This document shows positions 16,497 to 47,561 of a stretch of DNA of 64,000 nucleotides, one piece after another. Under the pieces are notes generated by a model. It worked only from the letters and a program-made list of their open reading frames with translations, made no database searches and was not told the DNA's origin. Each line of letters starts with the position of its first letter. The stretch's first letter is position 1. The DNA lies in contig CM062274.1 of NCBI GenBank assembly GCA_031216635.1, positions 26,420,913 to 26,484,912 on the forward strand, written 5' to 3'. Position numbers and translations under genes: made by a program. The stretch is from Dissostichus eleginoides (Eukaryota).

Positions 16497-16660
16497 ATGG
16501 CTGTGTTTGAGAACTGCTCTGTGTTGTTTGAGCTGAAAGCTTTGCCTTACAAGGAGAAGAAGGAGCTGAAATCAGCAATAACAGAGAATGGAGGCAACAT
16601 TTCCTTTGTTGTCAATAAAAAGGTCGAGGGTGTGATCACTTCCTATACTGCCAGGCTATG
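16497..16660 (+). CDS. parp4: parp4 coding exon 1 (ATG, BRCT domain N-terminus)
   Basis: Acceptor ctcctcacag|GC precedes the ATG at 16497. Translation MAVFENCSVLFELKALPYKEKKELKSAITENGGNISFVVNKKVEGVITSYTARL resembles the human PARP4 N-terminus (MVMGIFANCIFCLKVKYLP...KENGGKFSF). Donor ctatg|gtcttt ends the exon in phase 2. The donor choice is the weakest call in the gene. Confidence 0.65.
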
Positions 16661-16839
16661 GTCTTTTGATTAAAAACGAAATATCTTCCTCCAACATGAT
16701 TAATGTACATAAAGCTTGCATGTTTAAACTGTGTCCTTGTGTTGCAATGTTAAAGAACAATCATATATTGCTCTCTGCCTACATTTCCCACAGTGCTCTC
16801 TGATAGTGACCAATGATGTATCAACCTGAGCTCCAACAG

Positions 16840-17018
16840 GCTGCGTAGCATCCAGAAATACCAAACGCCTGTGGTCAGGGTGGAATATGTGAACAGCTGT
16901 CTGGAGAAGGGAGTTCTTCTGCCTGTGGATGAATACAAGCTGGACATTTCCTCTCCCTCTGTGTTCTCTCCTCCTCTTCCCCCCTCCTCACCAAGGCGTA
17001 GTCCAATCTCACATCAAG
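16840..17018 (+). CDS. parp4: parp4 exon 2 (BRCT)
   Basis: Translation LRSIQKYQTPVVRVEYVNSCLEKGVLLPVDEYKLDISSPSVFSPPLPPSSPRRSPISHQ, donor caag|gtatta. The acceptor is ambiguous (aacag|g at 16840, or ctgag|c at 16831). All other frames hit stop codons. Confidence 0.6.
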
Positions 17019-18259
17019 GTATTATCAGCATAGGTAGTAATTGTTAACAAAAAGCATGTATACTAAGCACATGTTATATGCAACAAAACATTACACTTAA
17101 ACAGGATTCGAAAATTGGCTGCACACAGAACTGATTAGGTTTTGGTGGTCAGATGTCACGTTCACTGTGACCTCACACAACCCTTTTTTATCTTCCTAAT
17201 TAATATGCTTATTATGACAATTTCCCACAAATGTGTAATTGGATAAAACTAGGAAGTGATGGCATTTTATACAGACATGGATGCAACTTTACTGGTTGCA
17301 TAATGCATAAAACCTTTAGGGAGTAATTCTAGTTTTTCTTTTAATGTAGACACAATGTTTTAAACAACATAAATACCCTTTATTAGGTCACCTTTTAAGG
17401 TCCACTAGAAGTAAAGTAGTATATCATGATTCCATGGGATCCTTGAAACTTTCAAATTAGCAAGACAAAATAAAGGCCTTGAATCTTTGTTTTTTTGCTG
17501 TCCAGAAACACTGCAACCATAAATGCTTATAGCAACAGTCGAAGATAAAATAAAATCAGTTATTGTGGATTCTCACTTTATAATATGATGTACTGCAGCT
17601 TACTTGATCCCCATTGGACAATAATGTATTGTTACTGCAGCAGTGAATGGAAGATGGTGAAGGCCATAGACCCCTAACTCTGATATTTGGGAATGCACCT
17701 TATTTACGTGTTGGTCTATAAAGCTTTTACATTACATTTGCGTTGTTTTAAAATGTGCAGTGTGGGTTTTTATGCACTGTATATGTATACAGAGGTGAAG
17801 GACTGTAATATAACAATGATTACTTTTTCCGGTTTACTGTCTCTTCCGGAAACTAACTCAATCAGAATCATGGACTCCACCCGGTTCCAACACAACGATG
17901 ACTCATGATTCCTCTGAGTCGTTTATCTGCTCTCAGGAACAGACACAAGTCGGAGCTTATTGTCGATCAATTGTTATGTCCTCCCACTTCAGTTTCCACC
18001 TTGATAGATGGACATTGTGATTAAAAAGTACAGTTGAGACTCAGTCAGCAGGTTTATCTTCATAGCAGCCTTTTCTTTAATAACCTGCAGCAGTGTTGTA
18101 AATCAAGAGCTTTGTGAAGTGTTTTCATAGGAACCCACAATGCTTACATAGCCTGTGTGTACTCAGGTTTAAATGCATACCAGTTCTAATGCTTTTATTG
18201 CAGAACAAGTAAAGTGAGGTGTCGTTCATGTGTATTTTCTTGTGTCTTTTGTATTTTAG

Positions 18260-18344
18260 TGTCCAAAGTACCATCAAGCAACACCGAGCTCTCTAAGAGG
18301 CAAGAGACTTCAGGGAAGAGCAGAAACATCTTGGAAAAGTTCAG
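18260..18344 (+). CDS. parp4: parp4 exon 3
   Basis: Acceptor gtattttag|tg, donor ttcag|gtgtga. Translation VSKVPSSNTELSKRQETSGKSRNILEKF is phase-consistent with exons 2 and 4. Confidence 0.7.
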
Positions 18345-18885
18345 GTGTGAACATCGACCCTTCTCAAGAAGTTTGTTGTATTAACCCTGCGGTATCAGTG
18401 ATGAAGCTGAACATGACATAGTTACATCAAACAGATGGTTAAAGGTTCAGTCATGCAGACCTTTTGTTATGATTGTAAATATGTGTGACCTTTGCACTGC
18501 TGAGACCTTTATCAAGCTGATCGGTGACCTATTCCTGTATCTCTTAGCAGTTCCTGATCCTTCAGACAAATAATTCAAAGATAGTATTGTTACAGAGAAT
18601 AGCTTTGTACACTCACAGGCTCAACACATTTTGTCACCTGAGTATGCAGCTCACGAAGAATAATTTGCATGAATAAATAGAAAACTGTCCTTCTTTTAAA
18701 TCTCAATGTTCTCCATGTGAAGATGCATTTGTTGCTGCTCCCATACTTTGTCACATGGTGGTAGGAACAACTGGATGAAAAACACCACAAGAGTTCAAAC
18801 ATTAGGTCGACATTTCTGCAAAAATGTGTATTCCCTAATAACATGTATGCATGAATTCATCTTCATTTTCAATTACATTCCACAG

Positions 18886-18964
18886 AATTTATACTGAAAC
18901 TGATACGACTCTTCCGAAGTACCCGGATCATTTTCAAGTGGCAAAGTATTCAATCTTTGAAAAG
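18886..18964 (+). CDS. parp4: parp4 exon 4
   Basis: Translation RIYTETDTTLPKYPDHFQVAKYSIFEK matches human ...PQDFEVAKYNTLEK. Acceptor tccacag|, donor gaaaag|gtaaag. Confidence 0.8.
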
Positions 18965-19047
18965 GTAAAGCTGCAGTTTATTTTTAGCTTTTCTTATACT
19001 GCTTCTACAGTAAATATGTATTGTTAATATTATACATTTCGCTCCAG

Positions 19048-19152
19048 ATAAACAGCAGGACGTGGTGTGTGCTGGAGCTTCAGAGTTACAGAGGAGAGAC
19101 AGGATGCCGGTACCGGGTGGTCAGGTACTGGAAGGACGATATCGGAGCCAAG
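19048..19152 (+). CDS. parp4: parp4 exon 5
   Basis: Translation INSRTWCVLELQSYRGETGCRYRVVRYWKDDIGAK. Acceptor gctccag|, donor gccaag|gtatga. Confidence 0.8.
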
Positions 19153-19798
19153 GTATGAATTATTATACATCACTGCTTTGCTGAGCTAATAAATGACTTT
19201 ATTTACTTTTTAGACATAGATGAATTTCATTCAACTTCATACACTGCACGCAATTCATATCACCATTTTTTATTTCTAAACTTCCTGCCTTCCCTTCATT
19301 TTTTAAGCTGTTTGTAATGATATAGTAATTGACTGTTTCCCTAGACATACTACATTATTTAAATATTAGTTTTGAGTTGCTATACATGTTATTTGACCAG
19401 TGAATCTGTTTCTCTGTTATTCAACGTTTTCTTTCATGTTGCTTTTAACTCACAGATTAAAATGCTGGACATTTCATTTTTCTGGCTTTATGACCCATTT
19501 ATAATATCTTCTCCTTTATGTCTTAAAACATGCTGTCTATTGTAATATGATGTTAAAGTTGACTGAAGTTAAAGAATCTGAAAAACTGAAGAGACCACCA
19601 GCAGAGTAAACATCAGCGAACCACAACAAATCAATTCCAGCAATCACCAGGAGACTAAGATGGGCACTTTTTTTATAACATGTCACATTACATAAAGTAC
19701 CATAAAATCAACATTTGGGACTCGAATCAGACTTCAGTTATAGAGTAACTTGAACATTGTAAAAACATCAAAACCAATGCCTGTGTTTGTGCTAACAG

Positions 19799-19957
19799 AA
19801 TGCGGCGGTGAGGGATATGCTGGTGCATCTGTCCACCTCAGAGGAAGCTCTGGAGGTCTACAAGACCCTGAGAGAGACCCTGCAGGCTGATGGTCTGCAG
19901 CTAAGGAACAACACCCCCCCACAGGCCCCAGACCTCGGCTCCGACCCCCTCCAGCTG
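19799..19957 (+). CDS. parp4: parp4 exon 6
   Basis: Translation NAAVRDMLVHLSTSEEALEVYKTLRETLQADGLQLRNNTPPQAPDLGSDPLQL. Acceptor gctaacag|, donor cagctg|gtggga. Confidence 0.8.
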
Positions 19958-19974
19958 GTGGGACATTACATTTA

Positions 19975-20130
19975 ATTTCATTTGGCAGATGCTTTTATCC
20001 AAAGCGACTTACAATGAGTGCATTCAACCAGGAGGGTACAGAGCAACAAGAATCATGTAGGTATTAGTTTGAACTATGCCAAACCATTCGAAGTGCTAGT
20101 ACATTATTACAATATGTATAGAGATTCATT
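19975..20130 (-). mobile_element. SINE tail fragment (gcttttatccaaagcgacttaca motif, reverse orientation)
   Basis: cagatgcttttatccaaagcgacttacaat is the reverse complement of the 59500-59530 SINE tail motif gtaagtcgctttggataaaagcg. Confidence 0.45.
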
Positions 20131-20754
20131 GGCCGAGGTGCAGTCGAAAAAGGTGTGTTTTCACTTACCCTTTACTTTATTTAAACCTTTAAGAAATTGA
20201 TATGATAAACAATAAAGCTGCCGACAGTAAGTAGAAGGATACTATTCTGTTCCTCTTGAACGGTATTTCTTTCACAATTAAATGTATTGCACCAGCATGT
20301 GGTGGATAAATGTAATAAGTTATGTTTATTTATACAATAATACATGCAAAGTCAATGAATTAACATCATTCCCTGTCAATATGCAACATTATTACACATT
20401 ACAAAACTATTTAAAGGGTAAATAATTATTCATTTCATAGAAAAAAATCCCAATAATAAAAATGACAGTACAAAGTACATTAGATTACACAATTGTCTTG
20501 ATTTTTAAATACCTAGCCTTCATAAAATACAAAACTGTCTTTGTTTAAAATGAAATGAGAGGTGTTTTAGAGACTCTACTCCAAGCTTTATTGCAGCTTA
20601 CATTTTCATGGTACAGATGTTCCTAATATACATCAGTGTATCTTAGTTAGCAGCGTTCTGAGTTTGTTAGGGTGAGTCACTGCTTCTGGACATTTGTGTA
20701 GCTGAATCTAATGAGCTGTTGATTTGATTTGCATGTTCCTTGTTTTACTGACAG

Positions 20755-20892
20755 CTGCTGCTGGAGGAGAAGCTGAACACAGGAAGCTTATCACAGGAAG
20801 TGGGAGTGTTTGTGGAGCTGCTGTGGACCGAGGCCCTGGGCTGCCTCGGCAACATCCTCACAGTCCCCATCAACAAGCTCAGCCTCAACGAT
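20755..20892 (+). CDS. parp4: parp4 exon 7 (PARP regulatory helical domain)
   Basis: Translation LLLEEKLNTGSLSQEVGVFVELLWTEALGCLGNILTVPINKLSLND aligns with human ALLLEEVMNSSTLSQEVSDLVEMIWAEALGHLEHMLLKPVNRISLND. Donor aacgat|gtaagc. Confidence 0.9.
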
Positions 20893-21035
20893 GTAAGCTC
20901 CTCTCTGTGGATCGTGCTGCTGTCAGACTACTGAGAGAAACATCAGCTGCCCCATCAGCCTTATTTGTTTGACCTTCCCGGAAAGACAGTCTAATGATGC
21001 ATCTCATTACAATTATTCTTGTGCTCCGTGTCTCG

Positions 21036-21042
21036 TGTGTGC

Positions 21043-21076
<34 letters not shown>
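21036..21076. repeat. (GT)n microsatellite abutting the parp4 exon 8 acceptor
   Basis: tgtgtgcgtctgtgtgtgtgtgtgtgtgtgtgtgtgtag|gtt. Confidence 0.9.
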
Positions 21077-21247
21077 GTTAGCAGGGTGGAGGGCTTGTTG
21101 CTCCAGGCTCAGAGGAAGCTGAAGGAGTCAGATTATAATGAGGTTGCGTCTCTTATTGATGAGGTTTACACCCTGCTGCCGCACAAAGAGCCATGCCCCT
21201 TTCCTCCCACTGCCAAGTTCATCTCTCAGAAACTGGATCTCTGTCAG
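21077..21247 (+). CDS. parp4: parp4 exon 8
   Basis: Translation VSRVEGLLLQAQRKLKESDYNEVASLIDEVYTLLPHKEPCPFPPTAKFISQKLDLCQ (human VSKAEGILLL...LIPHKG...ADLCQ). The acceptor follows a (GT)n tract directly: gtgtgtgtag|gtt. Confidence 0.88.
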
Positions 21248-21946
21248 GTAACACTGAACTCACACACAATCACTAACACAAACACTAAGACATGTATAGG
21301 CAAGGCAAGGCAAGTTTATTTATATAGCACCTTTCAGCACATGGCAATTCAAAGTGCTTTACAAAATAAAATAAAAGACATTTAAGAAGAAATACAGCAG
21401 AAATATAGACAGCTTGAAGCAAATAATTATGAATTGTAAGGCCACATGCTGTCTTTTTCCTAAATACAGTATCCGTTGGTGTGTTCACAAACATAGCCAA
21501 AAACCCTGTTGATGAGTGTGCTGTTGATGGACTTTTACAATGACGTCATTGAAAAACATTGATGTACAGTATGTCTGGGTTGGATTTCTTTTGTATACTA
21601 ATTACATAAATGGTACTTAAGCAAGAAGTATATAATAAATACTTTTTAAAGTTAGTTTATATCATGGTGATCCTTATAAACACTGATAAGTCAGGGTGTC
21701 CGCGGGGTCTTAAAAAGTATTAAAAGTTGATAAATCAATTCAGCGAAAATTAAGGCTATTAAAAAGTATTAAAAAGTGTTAAACGGCATTTTCCAAGGTA
21801 TTAAGAAGGTCCACAGCAACGACAACATGAAACACCCTTTAATTTACTGCAACGACATGTCGGGAAACCCCCTCAAGGCGGCCCCATGCATAGCGCGCTG
21901 TCAAATGCTGCTTCTTATTTTAAGTTTCGTTGCCTTGCTCTGCTCT

Positions 21947-21962
21947 GGGGGGGGGGGGGGGG
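21947..21962. repeat. G16 homopolymer
   Basis: Sixteen consecutive G (ctctgggggggggggggggagag). Confidence 0.9.
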
Positions 21963-23812: not shown

Positions 23813-23964
23813 TTAATCCGAGATGTTCTCAACGTGAGTGAAATGACCCTGAGGAGCCCCATGCCCTCCTGCCTGGGGAAGTACCGCGCTCTGAGGTGCA
23901 GCATTGAGGCGGCCCCCCCCGACACCCCCGAGCTTCAGGCTGTCACCTCCCTGCTGCAGGAAAG
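23813..23964 (+). CDS. parp4: parp4 exon 9
   Basis: Translation LIRDVLNVSEMTLRSPMPSCLGKYRALRCSIEAAPPDTPELQAVTSLLQE(R) (human LIRDMVNVCETNLSKPNPPSLAKYRALRCKIE). Acceptor ctttgtctag|, donor gaaag|gtagcg. Confidence 0.88.
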
Positions 23965-24935: not shown

Positions 24936-25067
24936 GAAGATGCAGATCAAACAGGTTCTGCGTGTCAGCCGAGGAGTGGAGCTCCAGACGTTTAAGAGTG
25001 AGTTTGGGAACGTGAGGCCCCTGCTGCACTCCTCCAGCCCCAGCAACTTTGTTGGAGTCCTGTCTCG
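24936..25067 (+). CDS. parp4: parp4 exon 10 (start of PARP catalytic domain)
   Basis: Translation KMQIKQVLRVSRGVELQTFKSEFGNVRPLLHSSSPSNFVGVLSR (human ...LSKLGNVRPLLHGSPVQNIVGILCRG). The donor ctcg|gtgagc runs straight into a (CA)n tract. Confidence 0.88.
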
Positions 25068-25070
25068 GTG

Positions 25071-25144
<74 letters not shown>
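25068..25144. repeat. (CA)n microsatellite starting inside the parp4 exon 10 donor
   Basis: ctcg|gtgagcacacacacaca... about 36 units. ORFs 24852..25145 and 24919..25143 are repeat-translation artifacts. Confidence 0.95.

Positions 25145-25145
<1 letters not shown>

Positions 25146-25409: not shown

Positions 25410-25411
<2 letters not shown>

Positions 25412-25456
<45 letters not shown>
25412..25456. repeat. (CA)n microsatellite
   Basis: tcacacacacacac...acacgcgc. Confidence 0.9.
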
Positions 25457-26008: not shown

Positions 26009-26107
26009 TGGTCTGCTGCCGCCCCGTGTCGGAGTGGAGCATCATGGGATTGAGAGAACAGACGCGGGTAATCTGGGCAGTGGAATCTATTTTAGTGATG
26101 ACCTGAA
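26009..26107 (+). CDS. parp4: parp4 exon 11 (PARP catalytic)
   Basis: Translation GLLPPRVGVEHHGIERTDAGNLGSGIYFSDDL (human GLLLPKVVEDRGVQRTDVGNLGSGIYFSDSL). Donor cctgaa|gtaagt. Confidence 0.9.
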
Positions 26108-26850: not shown

Positions 26851-27034
26851 CACCAGTTTGAAATACTCCAAGCGCAGCGAGACAGACGGCTCTCGGCTGC
26901 TGTTGGTGTGTGATGTGGCGCTGGGTCAGTGCATGGACGTCCATAAGAAAGACCTCACCCTGACCGAGGCTCCGGAGGGATACGACAGCGTGCACGGGGT
27001 CCGCCGCACCCCCAACACTCACTCTGAGTTTGTG
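26851..27034 (+). CDS. parp4: parp4 exon 12 (PARP catalytic)
   Basis: Translation TSLKYSKRSETDGSRLLLVCDVALGQCMDVHKKDLTLTEAPEGYDSVHGVRRTPNTHSEFV (human STSIKYSHPGETDGTRLLLICDVALGKCMDLHEKDFSLTEAPPGYDSVHGV). Donor gtg|gtaggt. Confidence 0.9.
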
Positions 27035-28061: not shown

Positions 28062-28224
28062 GACGATGAGTACGTGGTGTACAGTCCTGATCAGGTGAAA
28101 CTGAAGTTTGTGGTTCAGTTCAGCGTCGAGGGAGACGCACCGAAGGAGTTCAGTCCAAACATCAACATCTGCGCTGAGCCCTCTCCGGACCGAGATGAGA
28201 AGATAACTGAGAAACCTGACAATG
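28062..28224 (+). CDS. parp4: parp4 exon 13 (end of PARP catalytic)
   Basis: Translation DDEYVVYSPDQVKLKFVVQFSVEGDAPKEFSPNINICAEPSPDRDEKITEKPDN (human DDEFVVYKTNQVKMKYIIKFS). Donor aatg|gtatac. Confidence 0.88.
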
Positions 28225-28616: not shown

Positions 28617-28759
28617 ATAAGGAGCTCACGTTGGATGAAATTGAAATCTGTACTAACCCTCTGGACGACATGAAGTCCGGACTGATGGACAGCTCAGGTC
28701 AGCAGCTCCCTCTGCAGGCCGTCCACGTGAAGTGCAAATTGATGGATCTGCTCTCTCAG
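28617..28759 (+). CDS. parp4: parp4 exon 14 (VIT domain start)
   Basis: Translation DKELTLDEIEICTNPLDDMKSGLMDSSGQQLPLQAVHVKCKLMDLLSQ (human ...GNLVPLEDVHIKGRIIDTVAQ). Acceptor gtgtag|, donor ctcag|gtgaaa. Confidence 0.85.
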
Positions 28760-28964: not shown

Positions 28965-29096
28965 GTCATCATCTTCCAGAAATACACAAATCTGAGCTCT
29001 GTGCCCATCGAGGCAAAGTATGTCTTCCCCCTGGAGGATTCTGCAGCAGTGTGTGGATTTGAAGCTTTTATTAATGGGAAACATGTGGTGGGACAG
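28965..29096 (+). CDS. parp4: parp4 exon 15 (VIT)
   Basis: Translation VIIFQKYTNLSSVPIEAKYVFPLEDSAAVCGFEAFINGKHVVGQ is near-identical to human VIVFQTYTNKSHVPIEAKYIFPLDDKAAVCGFEAFINGKHIVGE. Confidence 0.93.
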
Positions 29097-29412: not shown

Positions 29413-29499
29413 GTGAAAGAGAAAGAGACGGCACGCAGGGAGTACAAGCAGGCGATAAAGAAAGGACATGGAGCCTACCTCATGGACCAGGACGCCCCC
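29413..29499 (+). CDS. parp4: parp4 exon 16 (VIT)
   Basis: Translation VKEKETARREYKQAIKKGHGAYLMDQDAP (human IKEKEEAQQEYLEAVTQGHGAYLMSQDAP). Donor ccccc|gtatgt. Confidence 0.9.
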
Positions 29500-30666: not shown

Positions 30667-30831
30667 GATGTGTTCACCATCAGTGTGGGCAATCTGCCGC
30701 CCAATGCGACCGTCCTCATTAAAGTCACGTTTGTGTCCGAGCTGGTCGTCACGGACGGGTTAATTTTCTTCCATCTCCCTGGGAGCGTGGCTCCATGGCA
30801 GGAGAGTGCGGCGCTCAACCAGACCACACAG
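30667..30831 (+). CDS. parp4: parp4 exon 17 (VIT)
   Basis: Translation DVFTISVGNLPPNATVLIKVTFVSELVVTDGLIFFHLPGSVAPWQESAALNQTTQ (human DVFTVSVGNLPPKAKVLIKITYITEL...ATVAPWQQDKALNE). Acceptor ctctgcag|, donor acacag|gtaaag. Confidence 0.9.
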
Positions 30832-32205: not shown

Positions 32206-32243
32206 GTCACTGTGGAGAAGGTGTGTGTGAAAGATGAGGCGAG
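32206..32243 (+). CDS. parp4: parp4 exon 18 (short)
   Basis: Translation VTVEKVCVKDEAR (human DTVEKICIKEIGT). Acceptor gatcaacag|, donor gcgag|gtgagc. Phase links exons 17 and 19. Confidence 0.75.
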
Positions 32244-32555: not shown

Positions 32556-32637
32556 AGAGTTCACCCTGGACATGTCGATTGAGATGCCGAATGAGATCAC
32601 AAAGCTGCGTTGCATCAGCCATAAAGTCAAGATCAAG
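32556..32637 (+). CDS. parp4: parp4 exon 19
   Basis: Translation EFTLDMSIEMPNEITKLRCISHKVKIK (human SFSLTMSIEMPYVIEFIFSDTHELKQK). Donor atcaag|gtaatc. Confidence 0.85.
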
Positions 32638-33960: not shown

Positions 33961-34098
33961 AAAACCGACTGTAAGGCAGTGTTGAGCGTGCTGCCAGGAG
34001 AGGTCATGGGTCCAGTTGGCTTCATGCTGTCCGTCACTCTGTCAGAGGTCCACCTGCCCAGGATGTGGGTGGAGAAACACCCCGACAAGGACAGCCAG
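33961..34098 (+). CDS. parp4: parp4 exon 20
   Basis: Translation KTDCKAVLSVLPGEVMGPVGFMLSVTLSEVHLPRMWVEKHPDKDSQ (human RTDCKAVISTMEGSS...LPRMWVEKHPEKESE). Confidence 0.9.
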
Positions 34099-34774: not shown

Positions 34775-34964
34775 GCCAGCATGTTAGTTTTCTATCCAGA
34801 CTTTGAAGTGAACTCCGAGCGTGAATCTGATGAACTCGTCTTGCTGCTCGACACGTCGGAGTCCATGAAGGGAGAGTCTCTCATCTTGGCCCAGAAAATC
34901 GCCCTGAAGGTCCTCAGACAAATCGATAACAAAACCAAACTCAATGTCATTTTATTTGGCACAG
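34775..34964 (+). CDS. parp4: parp4 exon 21 (vWA domain start)
   Basis: Translation ASMLVFYPDFEVNSERESDELVLLLDTSESMKGESLILAQKIALKVLRQIDNKTKLNVILFGT (human ACMLVFQPDLDV...VIICLDCSSSMEGVTFLQAKQIALHAL...KVNIIQFGTG). Contains the vWA MIDAS-like D-x-S-x-S motif. Coordinates cross-checked against ORF 34781..35002. Confidence 0.9.
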
Positions 34965-35391: not shown

Positions 35392-35462
35392 ATCACAAAG
35401 ACGCTTTCCTCACAGCACGGCCGCTCTTTGAAGCTCAACCGGCAGCAGAAACATTTATCAAG
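35392..35462 (+). CDS. parp4: parp4 exon 22 (vWA)
   Basis: Translation DHKDAFLTARPLFEAQPAAETFIK. Acceptor gtctgtcag|, donor atcaag|gtgagt. Phase links exons 21 and 23. Confidence 0.75.
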
Positions 35463-36154: not shown

Positions 36155-36342
36155 CTCTCCTCTCCAGTAGGGGGCAGCACTGAGCTGTGGCGGCCCCTGC
36201 GAGCTCTCAGCCTGCTGCCTCCGTCCCGCGGCGTCAGGAACCTGCTGCTGCTGTCGGACGGACACATCCAGAACGCAGAGCTCACCCTGCAGCTGCTCAG
36301 AGACAACGCCGAGCACAGCCGCCTCTTCACCTGCGGCCTCAG
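36155..36342 (+). CDS. parp4: parp4 exon 23 (vWA)
   Basis: Translation LSSPVGGSTELWRPLRALSLLPPSRGVRNLLLLSDGHIQNAELTLQLLRDNAEHSRLFTCGL (human ...GNTDFWKTLRYLSLLYPARGSRNILLVSDGHLQDESLTLQLVKRSRPHTRLFACGI). Confidence 0.9.
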
Positions 36343-36981: not shown

Positions 36982-37081
36982 CCCGACAGCCAATCGGCAC
37001 ATGCTCAGAGCCCTGGCTCAGGCCGGGGGCGGAGCCTTTGAGTTCTTCGACACAAAAACCAAACATAACTGGACAGATAAG
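36982..37081 (+). CDS. parp4: parp4 exon 24 (vWA)
   Basis: Translation SPTANRHMLRALAQAGGGAFEFFDTKTKHNWTDK (human GSTANRHVLRILSQCGAGVFEYFNAKSKHSWRKQ). Confidence 0.9.
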
Positions 37082-37565: not shown

Positions 37566-37736
37566 GTTGCATCTCAGCTGCATCGTATGGCGTCTCCCAG
37601 CTGCAGTTCAGTGTCAGTGAAGTGGCAGCAGTTCAACCCGACAGCGCCCCCTCCTGTTCAAGCTCCCAAGCAGCTCCACGCTCTGTTCAATGATTGCCAC
37701 ACCCTGGTGTACGGCTTTGTGCCGCACTGCACTCAG
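37566..37736 (+). CDS. parp4: parp4 exon 25
   Basis: Translation (VASQ)LHRMASPSCSSVSVKWQQFNPTAPPPVQAPKQLHALFNDCHTLVYGFVPHCTQ (human ...RLCSPSCHSVSVKWQQLNPDVPEALQAPAQVPSLFLNDRLLVYGFIPHCTQ). An alternative in-frame acceptor lies at 37578 (atctcag|ctg). Confidence 0.85.
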
Positions 37737-39195: not shown

Positions 39196-39276
39196 GCCAC
39201 CCTGCTCGGAAATCTCAGCGGTCAGGAGCTCCAAACCATGGTTTCAACCAGTGAGCTGCAGAAGACCAGAGGCACA
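39196..39276 (+). CDS. parp4: parp4 exon 26
   Basis: Translation ATLLGNLSGQELQTMVSTSELQKTRGT (human ATLCALIQEKEFRTMVSTTELQKTTGT). The donor ggcaca|gtaaga runs straight into (CA)n. Confidence 0.9.
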
Positions 39277-39281
39277 GTAAG

Positions 39282-39332
<51 letters not shown>
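39277..39332. repeat. (CA)n microsatellite starting at the parp4 exon 26 donor
   Basis: ggcaca|gtaagaacacacacacaca... Confidence 0.95.
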
Positions 39333-39334
<2 letters not shown>

Positions 39335-39616
39335 CACTCTCCAGTCCCTTTTGTATTTGTTAATCCTTCTGCTTGCACTTCTACTTTGAAAAACATTAAT
39401 GCCATGTAACGTTGATCGTCTGTTTATACACGTTTTGTGTTGTTCAAAACGTCCTCTGAATCCATGAATCCTGAATAACAGTTGATGAAACTGTTTGTTA
39501 ACAAAAAATTATACCATCTTACATAATTGCACTCATCTTAACTAGTTGACCCTGCAGACACTGATGCAGGTTGTTGTTGATTATAGATTATGATGTGTAT
39601 TAATGTGTGTGTTCAG

Positions 39617-39695
39617 TTTCTTCACAAGCTCACTGCGAGGGCCCTCATCAGGGATTACGAAGACGGAAGCCTGGATACCAATGAAGCCGAACATG

Positions 39696-39697
<2 letters not shown>
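39617..39697 (+). CDS. parp4: parp4 exon 27
   Basis: Translation FLHKLTARALIRDYEDGSLDTNEAEHE (human MIHKLAARALIRDYEDGILHENETSHE). The donor catgag|gtgtgt is the first repeat unit of a ~190 bp (GT)n tract. Confidence 0.9.
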
Positions 39698-39775
<78 letters not shown>

Positions 39776-39809
39776 TGTGTGTGTGTGTGTGGTGGTGTGT
39801 GTGTGTGTG

Positions 39810-39887
<78 letters not shown>
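39698..39887. repeat. Long compound (GT)n microsatellite starting at the parp4 exon 27 donor
   Basis: catgag|gtgtgtgtgt... about 190 bp with a few ggt/gtt interruptions. ORFs 39590-39981 on both strands are artifacts. Confidence 0.95.
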
Positions 39888-39890
<3 letters not shown>

Positions 39891-39962
39891 CAAAAGAAAC
39901 CTGCATCGCTTTAGACGTCTAGTCCCAGCTCCAGGTGTTAAACTGGACCTTTTTTGTTTCAG

Positions 39963-40058
39963 GGAAAGAAAGCGGAGCTGAAGCGCTTCATCATCCAGTT
40001 AAGCAAAGAGTTCTCCATCCTGTCTCAGTTCACCAGCTTTGTGGCCATCGAGGAAAGG
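39963..40058 (+). CDS. parp4: parp4 exon 28
   Basis: Translation GKKAELKRFIIQLSKEFSILSQFTSFVAIEER (human MKKQTLKSLIIKLSKENSLITQFTSFVAVEKR). Confidence 0.9.
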
Positions 40059-40159
40059 GTTTGTTAAATGAAAAACATTATTTATTTATATTTGTCCACC
40101 TTTCCAGCCCAGATTTGAAGGTTTTGTAGCACCCAACCATCCCCTCTACCTTGTTTTAG

Positions 40160-40318
40160 GACTCAGAACAACCAGAGGAAGGCTTTACAGACATCCCAAA
40201 GCTACTCGCCGAGGAAGATGTGGACTTCCTCCCCTACATGGGCTGGATTTCTCCTCAGGACAGTGAAGAGGAGGACTCTGAGGATTATTTGGAAAGGAGG
40301 AGGTCCAAATGCTTAATG
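40160..40318 (+). CDS. parp4: parp4 exon 29
   Basis: Translation DSEQPEEGFTDIPKLLAEEDVDFLPYMGWISPQDSEEEDSEDYLERRRSKCLM (human DENESPFPDIPKVSELIAKEDVDFLPYMSWQ). Donor aatg|gtaaagtcac. Confidence 0.88.
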
Positions 40319-40420
40319 GTAAAGTCACATTGTGCAATCAGGGGACAAGAAAAAAGCATCTTTACTTGTTATGATTTACTAATTGACAATATCCTTTCTG
40401 CCTTCGTCTCTCCGTTGTAG

Positions 40421-40480
40421 GAGTTTGGGTTCCAAGCAACCGCTGAGGATGACTCTGAAGAGATCTCTGATTGCTTAATG
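40421..40480 (+). CDS. parp4: parp4 exon 30 (duplicated mini-exon)
   Basis: Translation EFGFQATAEDDSEEISDCLM, with acceptor ccgttgtag| and donor aatg|gtaaagtcac. It belongs to a tandem exon+intron unit duplication, so its inclusion in mature mRNA is uncertain. Confidence 0.65.
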
Positions 40481-40582
40481 GTAAAGTCACATTGTTTAAT
40501 CGGGGGACAAGAAAAAGGCATCTTTACTTGTTATGATTTACTAATAGACAATATCCTTTCTGCCTTCGTCTCTCCGTTGTAG

Positions 40583-40873
40583 GAGTTTGGGTTCGAAGTG
40601 ACCGCTGAGGATGACTCTGGGGATGCTAAGGATGAGTCTGAGGATGAGTCTGAGGATGCTAAGGATGAGTCTGAGGATGAGTCTGAGGATGAGTCTAAGG
40701 ACTTGTCTAAGGATGAGTCTGAGGATGAGTTTGGGGATGCTAAGGATGAGTTTAAGGATGCTAAGGATGAGTCTGAGGATGCTAAGGATGAGTCTAAGGA
40801 TGCTAAGGATGAGTCTGAGGATGAGTCTGAGCCTCTGGTTGGATTAAAAAGTGATCCAATAATCCAAATGAAG
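40583..40873 (+). CDS. parp4: parp4 exon 31 (acidic octapeptide-repeat exon)
   Basis: Translation EFGFEVTAEDDSGDAKDESEDESEDAKDESEDESEDESKDLSKDESEDEFGDAKDEFKDAKDESEDAKDESKDAKDESEDESEPLVGLKSDPIIQMK. It carries 24-bp (DESEDAKD-type) repeats. The frame is confirmed by ORF 40598..40948. Confidence 0.8.
40617..40840 (+). repeat. parp4: Coding 24-bp tandem repeat (acidic DESEDAKD-like octapeptides) inside parp4 exon 31
   Basis: gatgagtctgaggatgctaag-type units repeated ~9 times with variants (gac ttg tct aag, gat gag ttt ggg/aag). Confidence 0.85.
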
Positions 40874-41453
40874 GTAATGTCACATTGCATTTACTATAAT
40901 AATGAGGAAACAAAAGCGTTTGCTTGTTGTTATTTGAAGATGCCCTAAAATCCCAAACTTCCCTCCAGAGGGAATTTCTCTGAAAAATAAAGCATTTTTT
41001 GTACATTTAAGCATGTAAACAGACAGGAGAGGCACAAAATACAAATATGAACCTGAAAATGAGGATAATATGTCCTCTTTAATAAATAACACTTTAACAA
41101 GTTGCATTTGTCTCCCTTTGTGCTTTGTATGATAGGGGACTTATTCCCGTAAAATGTTCAGCAACAAATTGCTGCTTCACATTTGCTATTTTAAAGTGAC
41201 AATAAATGCATCGCTTTCAGATAGAGCTGTTATTTGTAATGCATTGACTGTGTTAAAACTAAACAAAAACATACCAATTGGCAGGTTAACAAATCCTTAA
41301 TGAGTGTCCTCGTGTGGCGTCACTCACATGTTATTAGAGAGGCAGGACAATGCAATACTGCAACATTAATTTTTGTTTGAAAAAAATTCAATTGTCCAGT
41401 TATCATTTGTAAGAAAAAGGTTTTGACTTTTTTATTGTTTCTGTGTTTTTTAG

Positions 41454-43351
41454 CATGGGTCCTCTCTGAGAAGAAGAGGGGACGTGGACAGATCGGCACC
41501 TTCAGCAGCGTGTGAACCCCCCATGCGTGATTTTGAAGTAGCACTACATTCTTTTGAAATGCATCAATTGGATGAAGAATTGCATTTGGATTCAGACTGC
41601 TCATTTCATCCTCCATCATCTCCTCCTTTCCACATGAAGGAACTCACCCAAAAACGTTCTTTCCGTGCGCCTCTCCCTCTGATCAGTGGTCTTCCAAGCC
41701 GCTCATTTCATCCTCATGGACTAATGGCAGCAGAAGTTCCCAGACGCCACGTCATCATGTTCGGTGCAACGCAAGCTGCAACTGACTCAGATGTGTCGAT
41801 GAAGATGAGCGATGATGGGCCTGAACCTCCTGTGACAGGGAAAGCATTTTCATTCTCAAGACAGAAAAAAGCACTCTCCTATTCTGCTCATTCACTTCAA
41901 TGCCAGTCAACCTCTCAAGACCCTCCAGCTCCCCCTCCTCCTACTCTTGGTCCAGCTCCTCCGCTAGCTGAAATTTTACTTGGCACTAATGCCATGTCGG
42001 ATCAGGTCAGTGAGTCACTGGTGGGACGCGCTTTCGGGAACAGAGCGCTATCAGCTTCCTATCAAACAGGAACCTCCTCTGGTCTCTGGGATGCAGGATT
42101 GTTTGCACCCCAGGAACGCAGCTCGAGTTTTGGATCTCCTGTGAAAGGTCAGTCAGGAGGGTTTTCCAGTAGTGCAGCATCTTTATTCTCCTCAGATCAA
42201 AGACAAAAAGGAAGCTTATTTTCTGATGAACTTGAAAGGGCAGGCTTTGGTCTCATGGGTTGTGCGCTTGAAGAAGAACCCGTTAGACAAGATCAGCCAA
42301 TGAAAGATGCCCCTCCTGTTTCACTTGATGAAGCATCAGATGTCGATGTAGAGCGACGTATGCACAAATCCACAGGTAGACCATTAGCAATGCTTGAAGA
42401 AGATGATCCCTCATGTGGAAGTTCTTGGGGAGGACTGGTCCACATGAAGGAACTCGCCCAAAAATCTCCTCTTCGTGTGCCACTCCCTCCGGGTGGTCGT
42501 CAAATTCCCTCATTTCATCCTCGAGAACAAATGGCAGCAGAAGTTCCCCAACGCCACAGCATCATGAACGGTGCAACGCGAGCTGCAACTGATTCAGATG
42601 TGATGATGATGATGAACGACCGTGCGCCTGAACCTCCTGTCACAGGGAAAGCATTTTCATACAGAAATGCACTGTCCTATTCTGCACATTCACTTCAACG
42701 CCAGTCCACCTCTCGAGACCCTCCAGCTCCCCCTCCTCCTACTCTTGGTTCAGCTCCTCCGCTAGCTGAAAGTTTACTTGGCACTAATGCCATGCCGGAT
42801 CAGGTCAGTGAGCAAATGGAATCACAAGCTCTCAGGATCAGAGCGCTATCACCTTCCTATCAAACAGGAATCTCCTCTGGTCTCTGGTCTGGACTCCAAA
42901 GCAGCTTGAGTTGTCCCACCTTTCCAGGTGCTATGAATATCCATGTCGGTGCGTCTGATTTGGATATGACAACTGAATGTGCGACTGAATCTCCTGTGAA
43001 AGGTCAGCCAGGAGGGTTTTCCAGGAGTGCATCATCTTTATTCTCCACAGCTCAGCTCTTATTTTCTGATGAACAAGAAATGGCAGGCTTTGGTCTCAGG
43101 GGTTGTGCGCTTGAAGGAAAACCCATTAGACAAGATCAGCCAATGAAAGATGCCCCTCCTGTTCCACTTGATGAAGCATCAGGTGTCCATGTAGAGCGAC
43201 GTAGGCACAAATCCAGAGGTAGAGCATTAGCAATGCCTGAAGAAGATGATCCCTCATGTGGAAGTTCTTGGGGAGGACTGCTCCCGCGTAAACGTGGGAT
43301 TGGTTTTTTAAAGGCCTCCAGGATGCGTCAATCAGCTGATCAACCATTTGA
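41454..43351 (+). CDS. parp4: parp4 exon 32 (1.9 kb exon with two ~270-aa tandem repeats; S/P-rich)
   Basis: Open frame 41454-43352 (ORF 41484..43355). Acceptor gtgttttttag|cat is in phase with exon 31. Two ~810 bp tandem copies (FHMKELTQK...SCGSSWGGL / VHMKELAQK...SCGSSWGGL). The proposed donor tttga|gtgagt at 43352 overlaps an in-frame TGA. Confidence 0.78.
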
Positions 43352-43682
43352 GTGAGTCCCCAAACGTTTTTTTGTTTTAATAGATAAGCTCCTACTAAGA
43401 AAACTGTGATAACTATTGAATAATAGTTGTTGACAAAAAATGCTCTACTTATTTATAATTTTTTTAAAGGCTTTGGTTGACAAAATTAACATAGATGAAT
43501 TCATCTGCATGTTAACTGAAAAGTATTGTTGTAAATCCTCTGATTATGTACATGTATGCATGTGGGAAAAAAAGTCAGTATATGTGTGTATTTATGTTTA
43601 CATTCTTTGATTTATGTGTGTTTTTTAATACACAACATCCAGTGTTCTCTAAGAGTGTCCTGTTGTGATCATGTCGTTTCAG

Positions 43683-43749
43683 GAGGAAGTCAGCAGACCC
43701 TGAAGCGCTGAAGCTCAGATGGACAGAGATCTTCCAAATGCAGCATTCG
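43683..43749 (+). CDS. parp4: parp4 exon 33
   Basis: Translation (E)RKSADPEALKLRWTEIFQMQHS. Acceptor tcgtttcag|, donor attcg|gtaaga. It is in frame only with the 43352 donor of exon 32. Confidence 0.75.
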
Positions 43750-44128
43750 GTAAGAAAATATCAAAATGAACGTATTGTTCTCGAGTACCTTTTCTTTTCC
43801 TGCTGACAGGATACAATGACAGCCCTTTGAATGGTTTATCAATTCTGATCCTTTGATCATTTCTGTGTGAAACCCATTTGGGATGATTAGCTGTCGGAAG
43901 GCTGCTTTGCACTTCTTGTTAAAACACTGTAACTATAGCGATACAGCGGTTAGAGATATGTTTACTGACAGCGGGGCAAATTTGGGTTTCAAAAGCAATC
44001 TTATGCAACGTGGCGATGTTCGGTATTATCGTACAAGCATTTTGGAAAAATACTTTAGATGCTTTTAAAAGTACTAATACCTAACTGTGGAAATACTCCA
44101 CTCCTTATCATGCACTCAAACCCTTACT

Positions 44129-44511
44129 TAAAGGTAGGGTAGGTAAGAATGGAGAAACCAGCTTGAGTGCGCTAGAATTTGAAAGTACACAACCGAAAGA
44201 AATCTGCCCCTTCCTTCAGACTTCCTTACAGAGCCCCTCCAACACACACGAACGCGCACATGACCAATGAGGGCACGAGATAAGTTTGTGCACAGATGGA
44301 AGGCTGACAGGCAGGTAGGCCATCCAGTTATTTTAGCCGGGCCGGCTCAGATGATTGGTCGTGCTTTTTACAGCGCACGGCTTCCAAGATGAAATATTTG
44401 TATGTATTTATTGTCAAAGCATTTAATTTATTCATTGCTATCGGGATGTTAAGAGCATTCCATGGAATATAACAAAAAGTGTTTCTGAAGTGAATTACCT
44501 ACCCCACCTTT
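44129..44511 (-). mobile_element. MITE family A copy (full, ~385 bp)
   Basis: aaaggtagggtaggtaagaatggagaaaccagcttgagtgcgctag ... gaattacctaccccacctttaag. In parp4 intron 33. Orientation opposite to copies 1 and 3. Confidence 0.65.
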
Positions 44512-45221
44512 AAGTAAAAGTATATAAACATTATCAGTAAAATGCATTAGTTAATCGTAAGTAAAAGTTTGCAATGAAATATATCATCAGTGAGTGTTTT
44601 ACTATTAAATGGTGTTTTTTGGATGTATTTATTGCTGCAGTAATGCTTATGTTATTGTGCTGCTGCAGATGGTTAAGGTTATATGTACATTGCAGGTCCT
44701 TTACATACAAGTTGAATCTACAGCAATTCATTATATTCTATAAGATTATGTTTGTAGCTTTGTCGCTGTCCTGCAGAACCATGTATCTCTGAACATTTAA
44801 AAAAACGATGTGATCATACATTTTTCTGCTGATCCAAAAGGCTTTTTTCATTATTTATTCACATTAGGAAGTATGATATATTTTTCAACACATAAAGGGA
44901 ACACCTATCCTTCATCAGATTATCACAAACACATCTTAAGATGCATGGTTTTAAACTGGAGAGGAAGGGAATGAAAATTGGTGATCTGAAATCTATTTGC
45001 TGCATAAAAGGGAAATACTCAAATTCAAATTTAAGGTACTTTTATTAAACGTAAATACAGTACTGGAGTAAATGTACTTGGTTGAGTTCCACAACTCTGT
45101 ACATTACACATATAACCTTTTGCACCTTTTTCTATTTCTATTTTTTTTTTTTAGCTGGCACTTTAACCATGGGGGCGTAATTACTACTTTATGAATTTGT
45201 GACATTTTATTTGTGTTTCAG

Positions 45222-45324
45222 GAGGGTTACTGGCAGTTCACCGCAGAGCTGGGTGAGCTGATCAATTTGGATGTGGACCTATTCGCCAACGTGTTCCTGA
45301 AAAACAAAGGCATCCAGTCTCTGG
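45222..45324 (+). CDS. parp4: parp4 exon 34 (MVP-interacting region)
   Basis: Translation EGYWQFTAELGELINLDVDLFANVFLKNKGIQSLG (human EDGFWKLTPELGLILNLNTNGLHSFLKQKGIQSLG). Confidence 0.88.
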
Positions 45325-46204
45325 GTGAGGACTCTCAGAAACAGATGCAGCCTTTAGAGTGGGAATAGATTTGTCATTTCAGATCATTTCCACATCTTTC
45401 TGTGGCCAAAAGATTGGGTTTACACGTGGAGATAGAAGTATCATCGCCGAATAGTGCCAACATGTTCTTATTAAGTTTAATATAACCTTCCAAGCACTAT
45501 AATATTAACCAATCAGACGAGAATGTCCTATTTGTATTCATGAGTTTTTAGTTTTTAAATCATTAAGATGAGTTTCAAAATAACCTGTTAATGACTAAGT
45601 CTCTTTCCTTGTCAAAATATAAGAAAAAACACTTTGATTCAAAATATAACTCCTCTCTTTGGGGGTTCTATTAAAAGGTATTTACCAGTGAAAAGTTTAA
45701 TATTGAATGTAAAATCAGTATTCAAAGTAAGTAAGTTGCGAGAGCCATTACCAGTGTTAAAACTCAAGGGAGAAGAGAACAATAACCTCAAAACTGACAC
45801 ATTTTAGTGTGTGAAAAGGGAGACAATTGCAAACAATTATCATGCCATGCCTCTGCTTTGTAGAGACTTCAATCAAAAGCCACATTTTCCACTTTTCAGC
45901 ACAAGTATATTTCATGATAGTTTGGGTTATATTTGTCCAGGGTTTGAGATTAACATCTGCTTCACAATGGAGATGTAAGAGATGTTTTTGTGGGGCTCCA
46001 AGTGGAAAAATACACTTAAAAAAATGCAACTGTGACATCTCTGTCCACAATAAATGTGCCTGTCTTTCAGTTTTCATTGAGGACTCTCGCATAGTTGCAC
46101 TGCTTTTTCTTTTTTAAGTCTTACAGATATCTCAGCCATGATGATGAGTTTGTTTCCCACGGATGTTAAAAGCATGTACTGTACTTGTCTGTGTGTGTGT
46201 TTAG

Positions 46205-46337
46205 GTGTGAAGGCCCATGCAGACATCCTGAAGCTGGTGGCGACTCTGCTGGTTCTGCAGCTGATGAGAGAGGAGAAGATAGAGGAGGGCAAACTGCTCC
46301 GCACCCTCTTCTGCCTGGACGACTCCCCTCTGCCCAG
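46205..46337 (+). CDS. parp4: parp4 exon 35 (MVP-interacting region)
   Basis: Translation VKAHADILKLVATLLVLQLMREEKIEEGKLLRTLFCLDDSPLPR (human VKGRECLLDLIATMLVLQFIRTRLEKEGIVFKSLMKMDDPSISR). Confidence 0.88.
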
Positions 46338-47290
46338 GTCTGTCCAAAACTTAATCGAACAACATGAAGATCCTGAATAAAAACACCTAAACTGATTCAA
46401 AGCTTAAAGGCTTACACTGCAACCAAAGTACAAAGGTGTGAAAAGAGGAAATGTAACAGGAAGAGAAACACATCACAACACAACAAAGCATTTATCTCTC
46501 GAATCATAACCTTGAGATGCCCATTGACTTTAAACACTTAAATATGTTGTTCTCATTTGCAAAATATTCAATATTTATTGCAATGTTCTTCTCTGGGTGA
46601 TTAATTTTTTTGGTAAATGTTTTTATTGATTTTCTTTCTTTTGACAAAAGCAAGTGATACAGATTCAGTAAGGATATATACACATACACATGCTAACAAA
46701 TCTTAATTTCAATCCCACCACTCTCCCACCCACCACCCATTAACCCATTGAGTTACAGGATACAGAGCCCTTTAACAGTAAATACAGTGTTTTCATAATT
46801 ACACTAGTTCAAGGGGGGCAAAGAAGGAAGAAAAAAAAAAAAGCACAGAGATAAACACAAAGAAAGAAAATTATAATAATGATAATGGAATAGAAAGAGA
46901 AAGAGAAAAATTATGAATCATAATATATAAATATATATTAAATGCTCACCACTCAATCCAACCTTATTCTTTATCAAGTGGATCTTGTAAGGAGTCATAG
47001 AAGTCCAGAAAGGGTTTCCATGTTCTAATAAAGGTGTTAAGGAGCCCCTGAGTAAGAACTTAATTTTCTCTAACTGTAAGAAGTACATAACATCTTTGAC
47101 CCACTGAGAAAAGGATGGAGGGGAATGTTGCTTCCATTTTAGAAGAATCAAACGTCTCGCAAGAAGTGTAGAAAAGGCTATAACTACATGGGCACTGTTT
47201 GGTAGGGTCTGGGTGATTTTTTGAGACTAGCTGTCACTCTATCCAGAGTGGCAACCTGTTTTCATATCGACTTTCTTCTTCTTCCTCCAG

Positions 47291-47561
47291 GCCTGAGCGT
47301 TGGGAGGAGGTGAAGAGGGCGGTGGACTGGGTCTGCTGGGCGGACCGGCAGTACCCGTGTGTCTACAGCCGGCTGGAGTTTGGATTCAGCTGGGAGTCCT
47401 CCACCCGCCAGCTGCTGGGCTTCGAAGGCCTCCCTCCCTTCTCCGCTCTCAGGGGGCTGAACCTGCAGAAGACCGTCCCCAGGTCCTGGTCCACTGAGCA
47501 GGATAGTGAGAGGGAGGTTCATACCCCTTTGCCTTTTTATGGGGATTACATAATCTATTAG
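47291..47561 (+). CDS. parp4: parp4 terminal coding exon 36 (stop TAG 47559-47561)
   Basis: Translation (R)PERWEEVKRAVDWVCWADRQYPCVYSRLEFGFSWESSTRQLLGFEGLPPFSALRGLNLQKTVPRSWSTEQDSEREVHTPLPFYGDYIIY* (human NIPWAFEAIKQASEWVRRTEGQYPSICPRLELGNDWDSATKQLLGLQPIS). Frame matches ORF 47310..47561. Confidence 0.82.

Follow-up and report, generated by a model that had tools for sequence, protein, structure and literature searches.

A 64,000-nucleotide stretch of the Dissostichus eleginoides genome (assembly GCA_031216635.1, contig CM062274.1, positions 26,420,913 to 26,484,912; hereafter the window) very likely carries parp4, the gene for vault PARP, with a linker that has been enlarged by local duplications. 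Thirty-six predicted coding exons, all on the forward strand, run from an ATG at 16497 to a stop codon ending at 47561. The linker, which separates the vWA domain from the C-terminal vault-binding (MINT) domain, is about 780–800 amino acids long, roughly twice that of other teleosts and human. Its enlargement is a notothenioid character and not a teleost-wide one.

The gene was rebuilt from PARP4 homologue fragments using tblastn and a simple splice-site scorer, independently of an earlier exon list. GT-AG boundaries were found in 35/35 introns of this splice-aware reconstruction, and the conceptual protein comprises 2187 amino acids once one base is restored. A first-pass annotation, made from the DNA letters alone, had proposed 36 coding exons between 16497 and 47561 with exons 29–32 at 40160-43351, and the independent reconstruction reproduced them. 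It had also named the gene parp4 and given the domain order BRCT - PARP - VIT - vWA - MVP interaction; both were borne out by the Pfam domain check and by alignment to human PARP4. A phmmer search against PDB chains matched human PARP4 with E=0 and 1279 bits, compared with only ~50-56 bits for PARP2 and PARP1, and every named homologue retrieved in protein searches is a PARP4. The alignment with human PARP4 is collinear, fish residues 1-1230 corresponding to human 3-1219 and fish 2009-2151 to human 1572-1715. The two peptides quoted earlier are present on the forward strand. LIRDYEDG (39644-39667) is identical in human PARP4, while the near-identity claimed for the long peptide VIIFQ...VVGQ (28965-29096) was overstated, with 35/44 residues identical.

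All expected domains were found, and the BRCT, PARP, VIT and VWA matches exceed the Pfam gathering scores. The BRCT domain occupies residues 3-90 (BRCT_2 9e-10, BRCT 1.4e-7) when the missing base of exon 2 is restored. The PARP catalytic domain (PF00644) lies at residues 414-573 (1.2e-27). Its motifs LLHSS, GSGIYFSD and DDEYVVY align with human LLHGS, GSGIYFSD and DDEFVVY, and their His, Tyr and Glu are what we take to be the H-Y-E triad of the PARP fold. VIT follows at residues 639-749 (3e-36) and vWA at residues 888-1043 (VWA_3 2.7e-16 at 888-1039). The C-terminal MINT domain scores 111 bits against human 1572-1715. The Ser and Lys of its KGIQSLGVK motif and the Arg of SRLE are identical to human S1614, K1618 and R1689, which contact MVP repeats 3-5 in the cryo-electron microscopy structure of the human vault-PARP4 complex (PMC12280208). 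The Pfam family PF26156 (PARP4_MVP-ID) is precomputed on the Trematomus bernacchii protein P0084 and on P0100.

Residues 1-1235 share 70-81% identity with five full-length teleost PARP4 proteins in nearly gapless alignments, which validates the exon junctions of the conserved part. The public D. eleginoides record is an NCBI partial model of 1493 amino acids (P0085), which is 100% identical to our reconstruction over most exons, including the species-specific acidic repeat, and which is the same locus, very probably from the same assembly. P0085 lacks exons 2, 8 and 27 and most of exon 32 and has a truncated C-terminus; the exon sequences that it does contain are identical to ours, and the 36-exon model is the more complete. 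For comparison of the linker DNA, the window was aligned with two D. mawsoni loci from GCA_011823955.1, which are ~97% identical to the window at the DNA level, and with the T. bernacchii locus on CADEHM010000276.1. On these identities, the window is almost certainly Patagonian toothfish DNA. Exon 2 was also compared with Notothenia coriiceps.

Homology to human PARP4 extends to DVDFLPYM(S/G)W, within the first ~26 codons of exon 29, ends there, and resumes at the MINT domain. The interval between the two alignable blocks is 778 amino acids in the window and 352 in human. Exon 28 (39963..40058) and the start of exon 29 (40160..40318, phase 0-0), whose first ~26 codons match human 1180-1212, form the last human-conserved part; the remainder of exon 29 is acidic. 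The first-pass annotation had stated that exons 29–32 have no close human counterpart, which holds for all but the start of exon 29, where DIPK..EDVDFLPYM.W clearly matches human. Exon 30 (40421..40480) is a 60-nucleotide phase 0-0 mini-exon encoding EFGFQATAEDDSEEISDCLM. Exon 31 (40583..40873, 97 codons, phase 0-0) consists of 46% Asp+Glu and contains a DESEDAK minisatellite. Exon 32 (41454..43351) is the largest exon at 1898 nucleotides and encodes a Ser/Pro/Ala/Gly-rich, predicted disordered segment in which S, P, G, A, T and Q make up 50% of residues. By position, exon 32 is the counterpart of human exon 30, because it is the largest exon, lies between the vWA and vault-binding domains, and is followed by four short exons (33–36). 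Human PARP4 has 34 exons in total, and four short exons follow the largest one there as well.

Three kinds of local duplication were found in the linker, in agreement with the earlier description of exons 29–32 as a fast-evolving acidic and Ser/Pro-rich module built by such events. The largest is a tandem duplication inside exon 32 spanning 41629-42441 and 42439-43284 (copies of ~810-850 nucleotides). Repeat unit A (41631..42440, forward strand) has 270 codons and unit B (42441..43283, forward strand) has 281 codons, with 86% nucleotide identity between them, and all repeat offsets in the exon are multiples of 3. In a tree of the six units from the three species, the A units form a clade separate from the B units. 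Orthologues are 92-97% identical and paralogues 86%. The separate A and B clades indicate that the duplication predates the Dissostichus-Trematomus split. In T. bernacchii, 243 nucleotides of unit B have since been lost.

The second is a 162-nucleotide cassette, composed of a 102-nucleotide intron and the first 60 nucleotides of the next exon, which is tandemly duplicated at 40310..40619 on the forward strand (1.9 copies, 94% identical). The cassette holds both splice sites in phase 0-0, and its duplication thereby created the in-frame mini-exon 30. There is one cassette copy in T. bernacchii, two in the window and three in D. mawsoni, giving 0, 1 and 2 mini-exons, respectively. Window copy 1 pairs with D. 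mawsoni copy 1 and the single T. bernacchii copy, and window copy 2 with D. mawsoni copy 3. D. mawsoni copies 2 and 3, the youngest, are 98.6% identical. The cassette intron also has an older, diverged relative at the start of intron 31.

The third is a coding minisatellite in exon 31 (40604..40831, forward strand) with periods of 9, 12, 21 and 33 nucleotides, all multiples of 3, that encodes (D/E)ES(E/K)DAK. Exon 31 is 39 codons long in T. bernacchii, 79 in D. mawsoni and 97 in the window. The linker thus grew by three nested events: tandem duplication of a ~270-codon unit in the large exon before the Dissostichus/Trematomus split, tandem duplication of the 162-nucleotide intron and exon-start cassette, adding a phase 0-0 mini-exon, and slippage expanding the 9/12/21-nucleotide acidic minisatellite of exon 31.

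Linker length across teleosts was measured between the anchors DFLPY and GYW. The window linker is 800 amino acids by this measure, compared with 402 in Takifugu, 391 in Lates, 375 in Oryzias, 333 in Haplochromis, 283 in Polymixia, 268 in Dicentrarchus and 231 in Etheostoma; the Sander model, which is truncated, gives 100. The first-pass annotation had proposed a teleost-specific expansion. That proposal fails, since the seven credible teleost models have linkers of 231-402 amino acids and the duplications are common only to notothenioids, some of them being restricted to Dissostichus. When exon 32 was searched exhaustively with HMMER against 1.84 billion representative proteins, the T. bernacchii orthologue was the sole genuine match. 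The sole non-notothenioid match, P0101 (E = 4.6e-6), was rejected as a spurious hit to an unrelated repeat protein. Low-complexity candidates overwhelmed a second and a third, word-indexed protein search (8000 scored; 16 and 2 hits), which added no further notothenioid species, and a sensitive BLAST comparison of the linker with those of eight other teleosts yielded compositional matches only. The other teleost linkers bear short internal repeats of their own, which is why repeat turnover seems to be the general mode of change in this region.

One weak local match to human was detected in the linker, SFHPPSSPPFHM to human SYHPSASSPFHF, with a conditional E = 0.003. At about 41595-41700 of the window (amino acids 1413-1446), CSFHPPSSPPFHMKEL...PLPLISGLPS weakly matches GSYHPSASSPFHFQP...RLPMASALPE at human 1452-1485. 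A regular-expression scan for FHMKEL/PPPFMK gave suggestive, weak results, with PPPF[ML]K-like motifs repeated in the Haplochromis and Oryzias linkers. The match to human 1452-1485 may represent a conserved short linear motif.

A number of points weigh against reading the locus as a working parp4 gene with a duplicated linker, and some of them concern the reading frame. The first-pass annotation had described the gene as complete and its exons as translating into one protein. All 36 exons are indeed present, but the frame is not intact: the concatenated coding sequence is 6563 nucleotides (3n+2) and contains no single open frame. In exon 2 one C is absent at 16822, where the window reads GTATCAACCTG and D. 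mawsoni GTATCCAACCTG (TCC in D. mawsoni, TC in the window). The loss creates an in-frame TGA at 16827-16829 (codon 54) so that, as assembled, the BRCT domain ends prematurely at residue 53. The site is intact in N. coriiceps and D. mawsoni, and the Notothenia protein reads VSNLSS there. P0085, the only public D. eleginoides annotation, skips exon 2. Joins of exons 1 and 2 that would avoid the frameshift (donors 16654/16660 to acceptor 16840; donor 16622 to 16856) were rejected: their splice scores are poor, and the conserved BRCT core, which in N. coriiceps and D. mawsoni is encoded by a normal exon 2, would be lost or replaced. A second lesion was found in exon 36, where a run of five C in D. 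mawsoni and T. bernacchii is four C in the window (47477-47480). In D. mawsoni, T. bernacchii and other percomorphs the protein ends with ...(P)VLVH, and the ancestral end ...TVPQVLVH would stop at TGA 47495-47497. Because of the lost C, the window frame continues for 21 extra codons to 47561 and the ancestral C-terminus is replaced.

These lesions raise the alternative that this copy is a young pseudogene, or one being inactivated, in which the exon 2 deletion is real and the exon 36 deletion is further decay. Both bases are missing relative to D. mawsoni, and the second relative to T. bernacchii also; one brings in the early TGA and the other alters the C-terminus. The public model bypasses exon 2, and D. 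mawsoni itself has several frame-breaking indels in conserved exons. Yet exons 1–28 differ from D. mawsoni at just 27 sites, with a ratio of nonsynonymous to synonymous substitution (dN/dS, pairwise Nei-Gojobori throughout) of 0.18, against introns that differ by ~3%. All splice sites are canonical. The 6.5 kb of coding sequence is otherwise free of stops and frameshifts, compared with a lineage-specific rate of ~1.9 1-2-nucleotide indels per kb in mostly intronic flanking sequence, and both lesions are losses of a C within a C run, typical of consensus errors. In the D. mawsoni assembly, 1-2-nucleotide indels occur in conserved parp4 exons 7, 8, 10, 17, 24 and 32 at approximately the intronic indel rate, even though substitutions are strongly constrained (dN/dS 0.18), and the annotation breaks the gene into at least five 'hypothetical proteins'. 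These indels look like assembly error rather than a pseudogene, and together with the constrained substitutions they indicate that such errors do occur in these assemblies. Inactivation therefore appears distinctly improbable. Given single-C losses inside C runs, constrained exons 1–28 and the lack of any further lesion in the coding sequence, the two window-specific deletions are moderately likelier to be assembly consensus errors than real losses.

Further points on the same side concern what is spliced. Splice scores are weak for the exon 1 donor and for the exon 19 and exon 25 acceptors, and the inclusion of exon 30 and of exon 32 as a single uninterrupted exon is predicted. Part of exon 32, exons 30–31, or both could be absent from the mature mRNA as exitrons or skipped cassettes, leaving a linker nearer 250-400 amino acids. 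The T. bernacchii model P0084 lacks ~80 amino acids of unit A and P0085 retains only fragments of exon 32, which also counts against a full-length linker, and skipping of exons 29, 30 or 31, all phase 0-0, would preserve the frame. However, exon 32 is open for 633 codons in the window and its orthologue for 565 in T. bernacchii. All indels between the two (10/10) are multiples of 3, and this holds within the segments removed by the models too. The other five frames contain 19-43 stops. The chance of such an open frame is ~1e-13 given the composition, and 2000 shuffles produced none longer than 292 codons. GT-AG boundaries are missing from the T. bernacchii 'intron', which resembles the 243-nucleotide deletion of unit B and therefore appears to be an alignment artefact, and P0085 also skips the conserved exons 2, 8 and 27, which makes it a poor model overall. 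A shortened mature linker is thus very unlikely, and exon 32 is better read as a single coding exon.

Selection on the linker differs from that on the rest of the gene. dN/dS is 0.18 in exons 1–28 and 0-0.22 in exons 33–36, parts that are under purifying selection. In exon 32 the ratio rises to 1.48 against D. mawsoni and, against T. bernacchii, 1.6 in a protein-guided alignment to 2.6 in a nucleotide-guided one; between units A and B it is 1.7. Two qualifications add to the points already raised. The excess over 1 is significant in one of two alignments (Fisher p = 0.0004, nucleotide-guided), and dN in exon 32 (0.10-0.11 against T. bernacchii; 0.039 against D. mawsoni) is close to intron divergence (8-12% and 3%, respectively), so that neutral drift stays compatible with the data. 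Disorder carries a similar qualification. AlphaFold2 gave exon 32 a mean pLDDT of 38 and no secondary structure over 632 residues, but it was run on a three-sequence alignment, and low confidence from such a run is weak evidence of disorder. The simplest reading is that the linker is a disordered spacer whose frame is protected and whose sequence is free or diversifying. Protection of the frame would follow from the position of the essential MINT anchor, whose exons lie further downstream.

The enlargement could instead be adaptive. The disordered PARP4 region has been proposed as a host-pathogen or cargo-recognition surface in mammals, and a doubling of this surface plus an acidic block could add valency or a new specificity. 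The dN/dS of 1.5-2.6 in exon 32 and 1.7 between its units fits this idea, as does the human-rhesus value of 1.75 in the corresponding exon (PMC4038475). Both units have stayed open since the Dissostichus-Trematomus split. A weak common motif, S[FY]HP..SSPFH[MF], at the start of unit A aligns with human 1452-1485, and other teleosts have independent short repeats around PPPF[ML]K-like motifs. Against these stand the match between exon 32 dN and intron divergence, as expected of unconstrained drift; the 243 nucleotides of unit B that T. bernacchii has shed without apparent harm; the variation in copy number and array length between sister species, as would be seen with unstable repeats; and the weakness of the motif evidence (conditional E = 0.003). 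Nor is a binding partner known. An adaptive origin is therefore unlikely. The same doubt applies to its specific form, in which the disordered PARP4 region of Antarctic notothenioids would have been adaptively multiplied, with a ~270-amino-acid unit that begins with an SSPFH[MF]-type motif present twice and evolving at dN/dS above 1, and a new, strongly acidic exon array still changing copy number between sister species; were it true, vault PARP would gain a longer, multivalent arm. A frame-protected spacer whose sequence is nearly free or diversifying remains the preferred account.

A fast-evolving PARP4 linker is a known phenomenon. Daugherty et al. (2014, PLoS Genet, PMC4038475) report that the largest PARP4 exon (human exon 30, ~360 amino acids) is predicted to be disordered, that it has a human-rhesus dN/dS of 1.75 when the remaining gene is constrained, that positive selection acts on it in primates and bats, a result backed by pairwise comparisons in other vertebrates including birds, and that its sequence and length are highly variable among vertebrates. 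The first-pass annotation had offered fish expansion of this region as another axis of variability; variable length and sequence were already on record. The exon described there and exon 32 of the window are alike in their position between the vWA and vault-binding domains, in being the largest exon, in predicted disorder, in dN/dS above 1, and in variable length and sequence. There are two differences. The study documents mammals and birds, with fish pairs not discussed in its main text, and it does not describe duplication of a ~270-amino-acid unit, exon-cassette duplication or a coding minisatellite as modes of growth, all three of which occur here. The scale of the notothenioid linker, these mechanisms and the copy differences between sister species appear to be undescribed.

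Human PARP4/vPARP (1724 amino acids; PDB 11jf, 9bw6, 9bw7, 8sx1, 9dfo) has the same domain order and identical catalytic-motif and MVP-contact residues. It differs in total length (2187 amino acids in the fish) and in a linker of 352 amino acids, with which the 778 of the fish are unalignable save for one weak motif. The fish linker also adds a 46% Asp+Glu block encoded by two extra small exons. Five teleost proteins were compared in the same way (Etheostoma cragini, 1591 amino acids; Dicentrarchus labrax, 1606; Polymixia lowei, 1661; Haplochromis burtoni, 1698; Oryzias latipes, 1719). Their MINT domains are 70-81% identical to that of the window, and each, like the window, has an acidic stretch ahead of a Pro/Ser-rich linker that carries short repeats of its own. 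Their linkers are 231-375 amino acids against 800, and neither the A/B unit nor the DESEDAK array was found in any of them.

The remaining exons, all on the forward strand, encode the conserved parts of the protein. Exon 1 (16497..16622) contains the start of the BRCT domain and encodes an N-terminus identical to those of P0085 and P0056; exon 2 (16794..17018) contains the BRCT core. The start codon lies 2 nucleotides past a good AG acceptor (TCCTCACAG|GCATG, window 16493-16496), and at least one non-coding 5' exon is likely to lie upstream of 16495. These are followed by exons 3 (18260..18344), 4 (18886..18964), 5 (19048..19152) and 6 (19799..19957). The helical/regulatory domain is encoded by exons 7 (20755..20892) and 8 (21077..21247). 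After exon 9 (23813..23964), the PARP catalytic domain is divided among exon 10 (24936..25067, with the His of the LLHSS motif), exon 11 (26009..26107, GSGIYFSD), exon 12 (26851..27034) and exon 13 (28062..28224, DDEYVVY). Exon 14 (28617..28759) precedes the VIT exons 15 (28965..29096, which encodes the VIIFQ...VVGQ peptide), 16 (29413..29499) and 17 (30667..30831). Exon 18 (32206..32243) is a 38-nucleotide micro-exon whose product VTVEKVCVKDEA matches human DTVEKICIKEIG. Exons 19 (32556..32637) and 20 (33961..34098) lead to the vWA domain, which begins in exon 21 (34775..34964) and continues through exons 22 (35392..35462), 23 (36155..36342) and 24 (36982..37081). Exons 25 (37566..37736), 26 (39196..39276) and 27 (39617..39697, containing LIRDYEDG) complete the part upstream of exon 28. 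For exon 27, acceptor 39587 was dropped in favor of 39617 on the basis of human homology, despite the lower splice score of the latter.

The MINT or MVP-interaction domain begins in exon 33 (43683..43749). Exon 34 (45222..45324) encodes KGIQSLG, with the Ser aligned to human S1614; exon 35 (46205..46337) the Lys aligned to human K1618; and exon 36 (47291..47561), which ends with TAG at 47559-47561 and holds the C4 run, the Arg aligned to human R1689. Acceptor 46127 of exon 35 was set aside for 46205 because of homology to the human protein, again despite a lower splice score. Acceptors 47231 and 47249 of exon 36 gave way to 47291, which has both human homology and a far stronger acceptor score (9.6).

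The window as a whole is AT-rich vertebrate DNA with dinucleotide microsatellites. A (GT)97 microsatellite at 39698-39887 begins at the exon 27 donor, where D. mawsoni and T. bernacchii likewise have a long (GT)n run; an (AC)28 run (39283-39337) lies just past exon 26. The 3' element of a UnaL2 long interspersed nuclear element (Rfam RF00436, 57 bits) was found on the reverse strand at 19972-20022, in intron 6 and 15 nucleotides after exon 6. Scans with Rfam and for tRNAs detected nothing relevant to the parp4 gene. Downstream of parp4 are an exon with a C-type lectin domain (52141-52434, forward strand; weak Pfam Lectin_C match) and an exon of LQARDQLINQL coiled-coil repeats (62019-62456, forward strand). 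The D. mawsoni counterpart of this lectin/coiled-coil stretch is annotated as a 1137-amino-acid Lectin_C protein, and these exons probably belong to a CD209/CLEC-like receptor gene or cluster. A Ty3/gypsy-type gag remnant (Retrotrans_gag, Ty3_capsid) and a C-terminal fragment of a murine leukaemia virus (MLV)-type integrase occur at 57663-58232 (forward strand) and 60762-61082 (reverse strand).

The T. bernacchii contig has a different arrangement upstream of exon 28. Positions 1-8500 of CADEHM010000276.1 were compared with window positions 49700-64000. Positions 292-3255, just upstream of parp4 exon 28, match window 60948-64000, which lies downstream of parp4, and none of exons 1–27 is found within 10 kb. 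The difference reflects either a rearrangement or a misassembly. In RefSeq, the parp4 remnant of this species is named 'uncharacterized protein LOC117481322'.

No public parp4 model of D. eleginoides, D. mawsoni or T. bernacchii is whole; each is fragmented or truncated, and the 36-exon model could replace them. The deletions at 16822 and 47477-47480 are concrete targets for polishing of the assembly.

If the fish protein behaves as human structure and biochemistry suggest (PMC12280208), its MINT domain would bind MVP repeats 3-5 in the vault interior, and the BRCT-PARP-VIT-vWA part would hang from MINT on the linker, tethered to the inner vault wall by analogy with human; that the tether is borrowed from the human structure is a further caution of the kind weighed above. 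Both vault residence and ADP-ribosyltransferase activity of the fish protein are predictions from its conserved residues. The linker sequence would be nearly free to drift, or under diversifying selection, as long as the reading frame is kept. Speculatively, a longer, partly polyanionic tether might alter reach or interactions inside the cage, and the duplicated unit might multiply a short binding motif.

The locus is a neat example that leaves knowledge of PARP4 or of vaults unchanged. It illustrates three routes by which a linker changes length, namely tandem duplication within an exon, copying of a phase 0-0 exon cassette, and slippage in a minisatellite, with copy differences between sister species. 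It also extends to fish the pattern known from mammals and birds, in which one disordered PARP4 exon escapes the constraint on the remaining gene.

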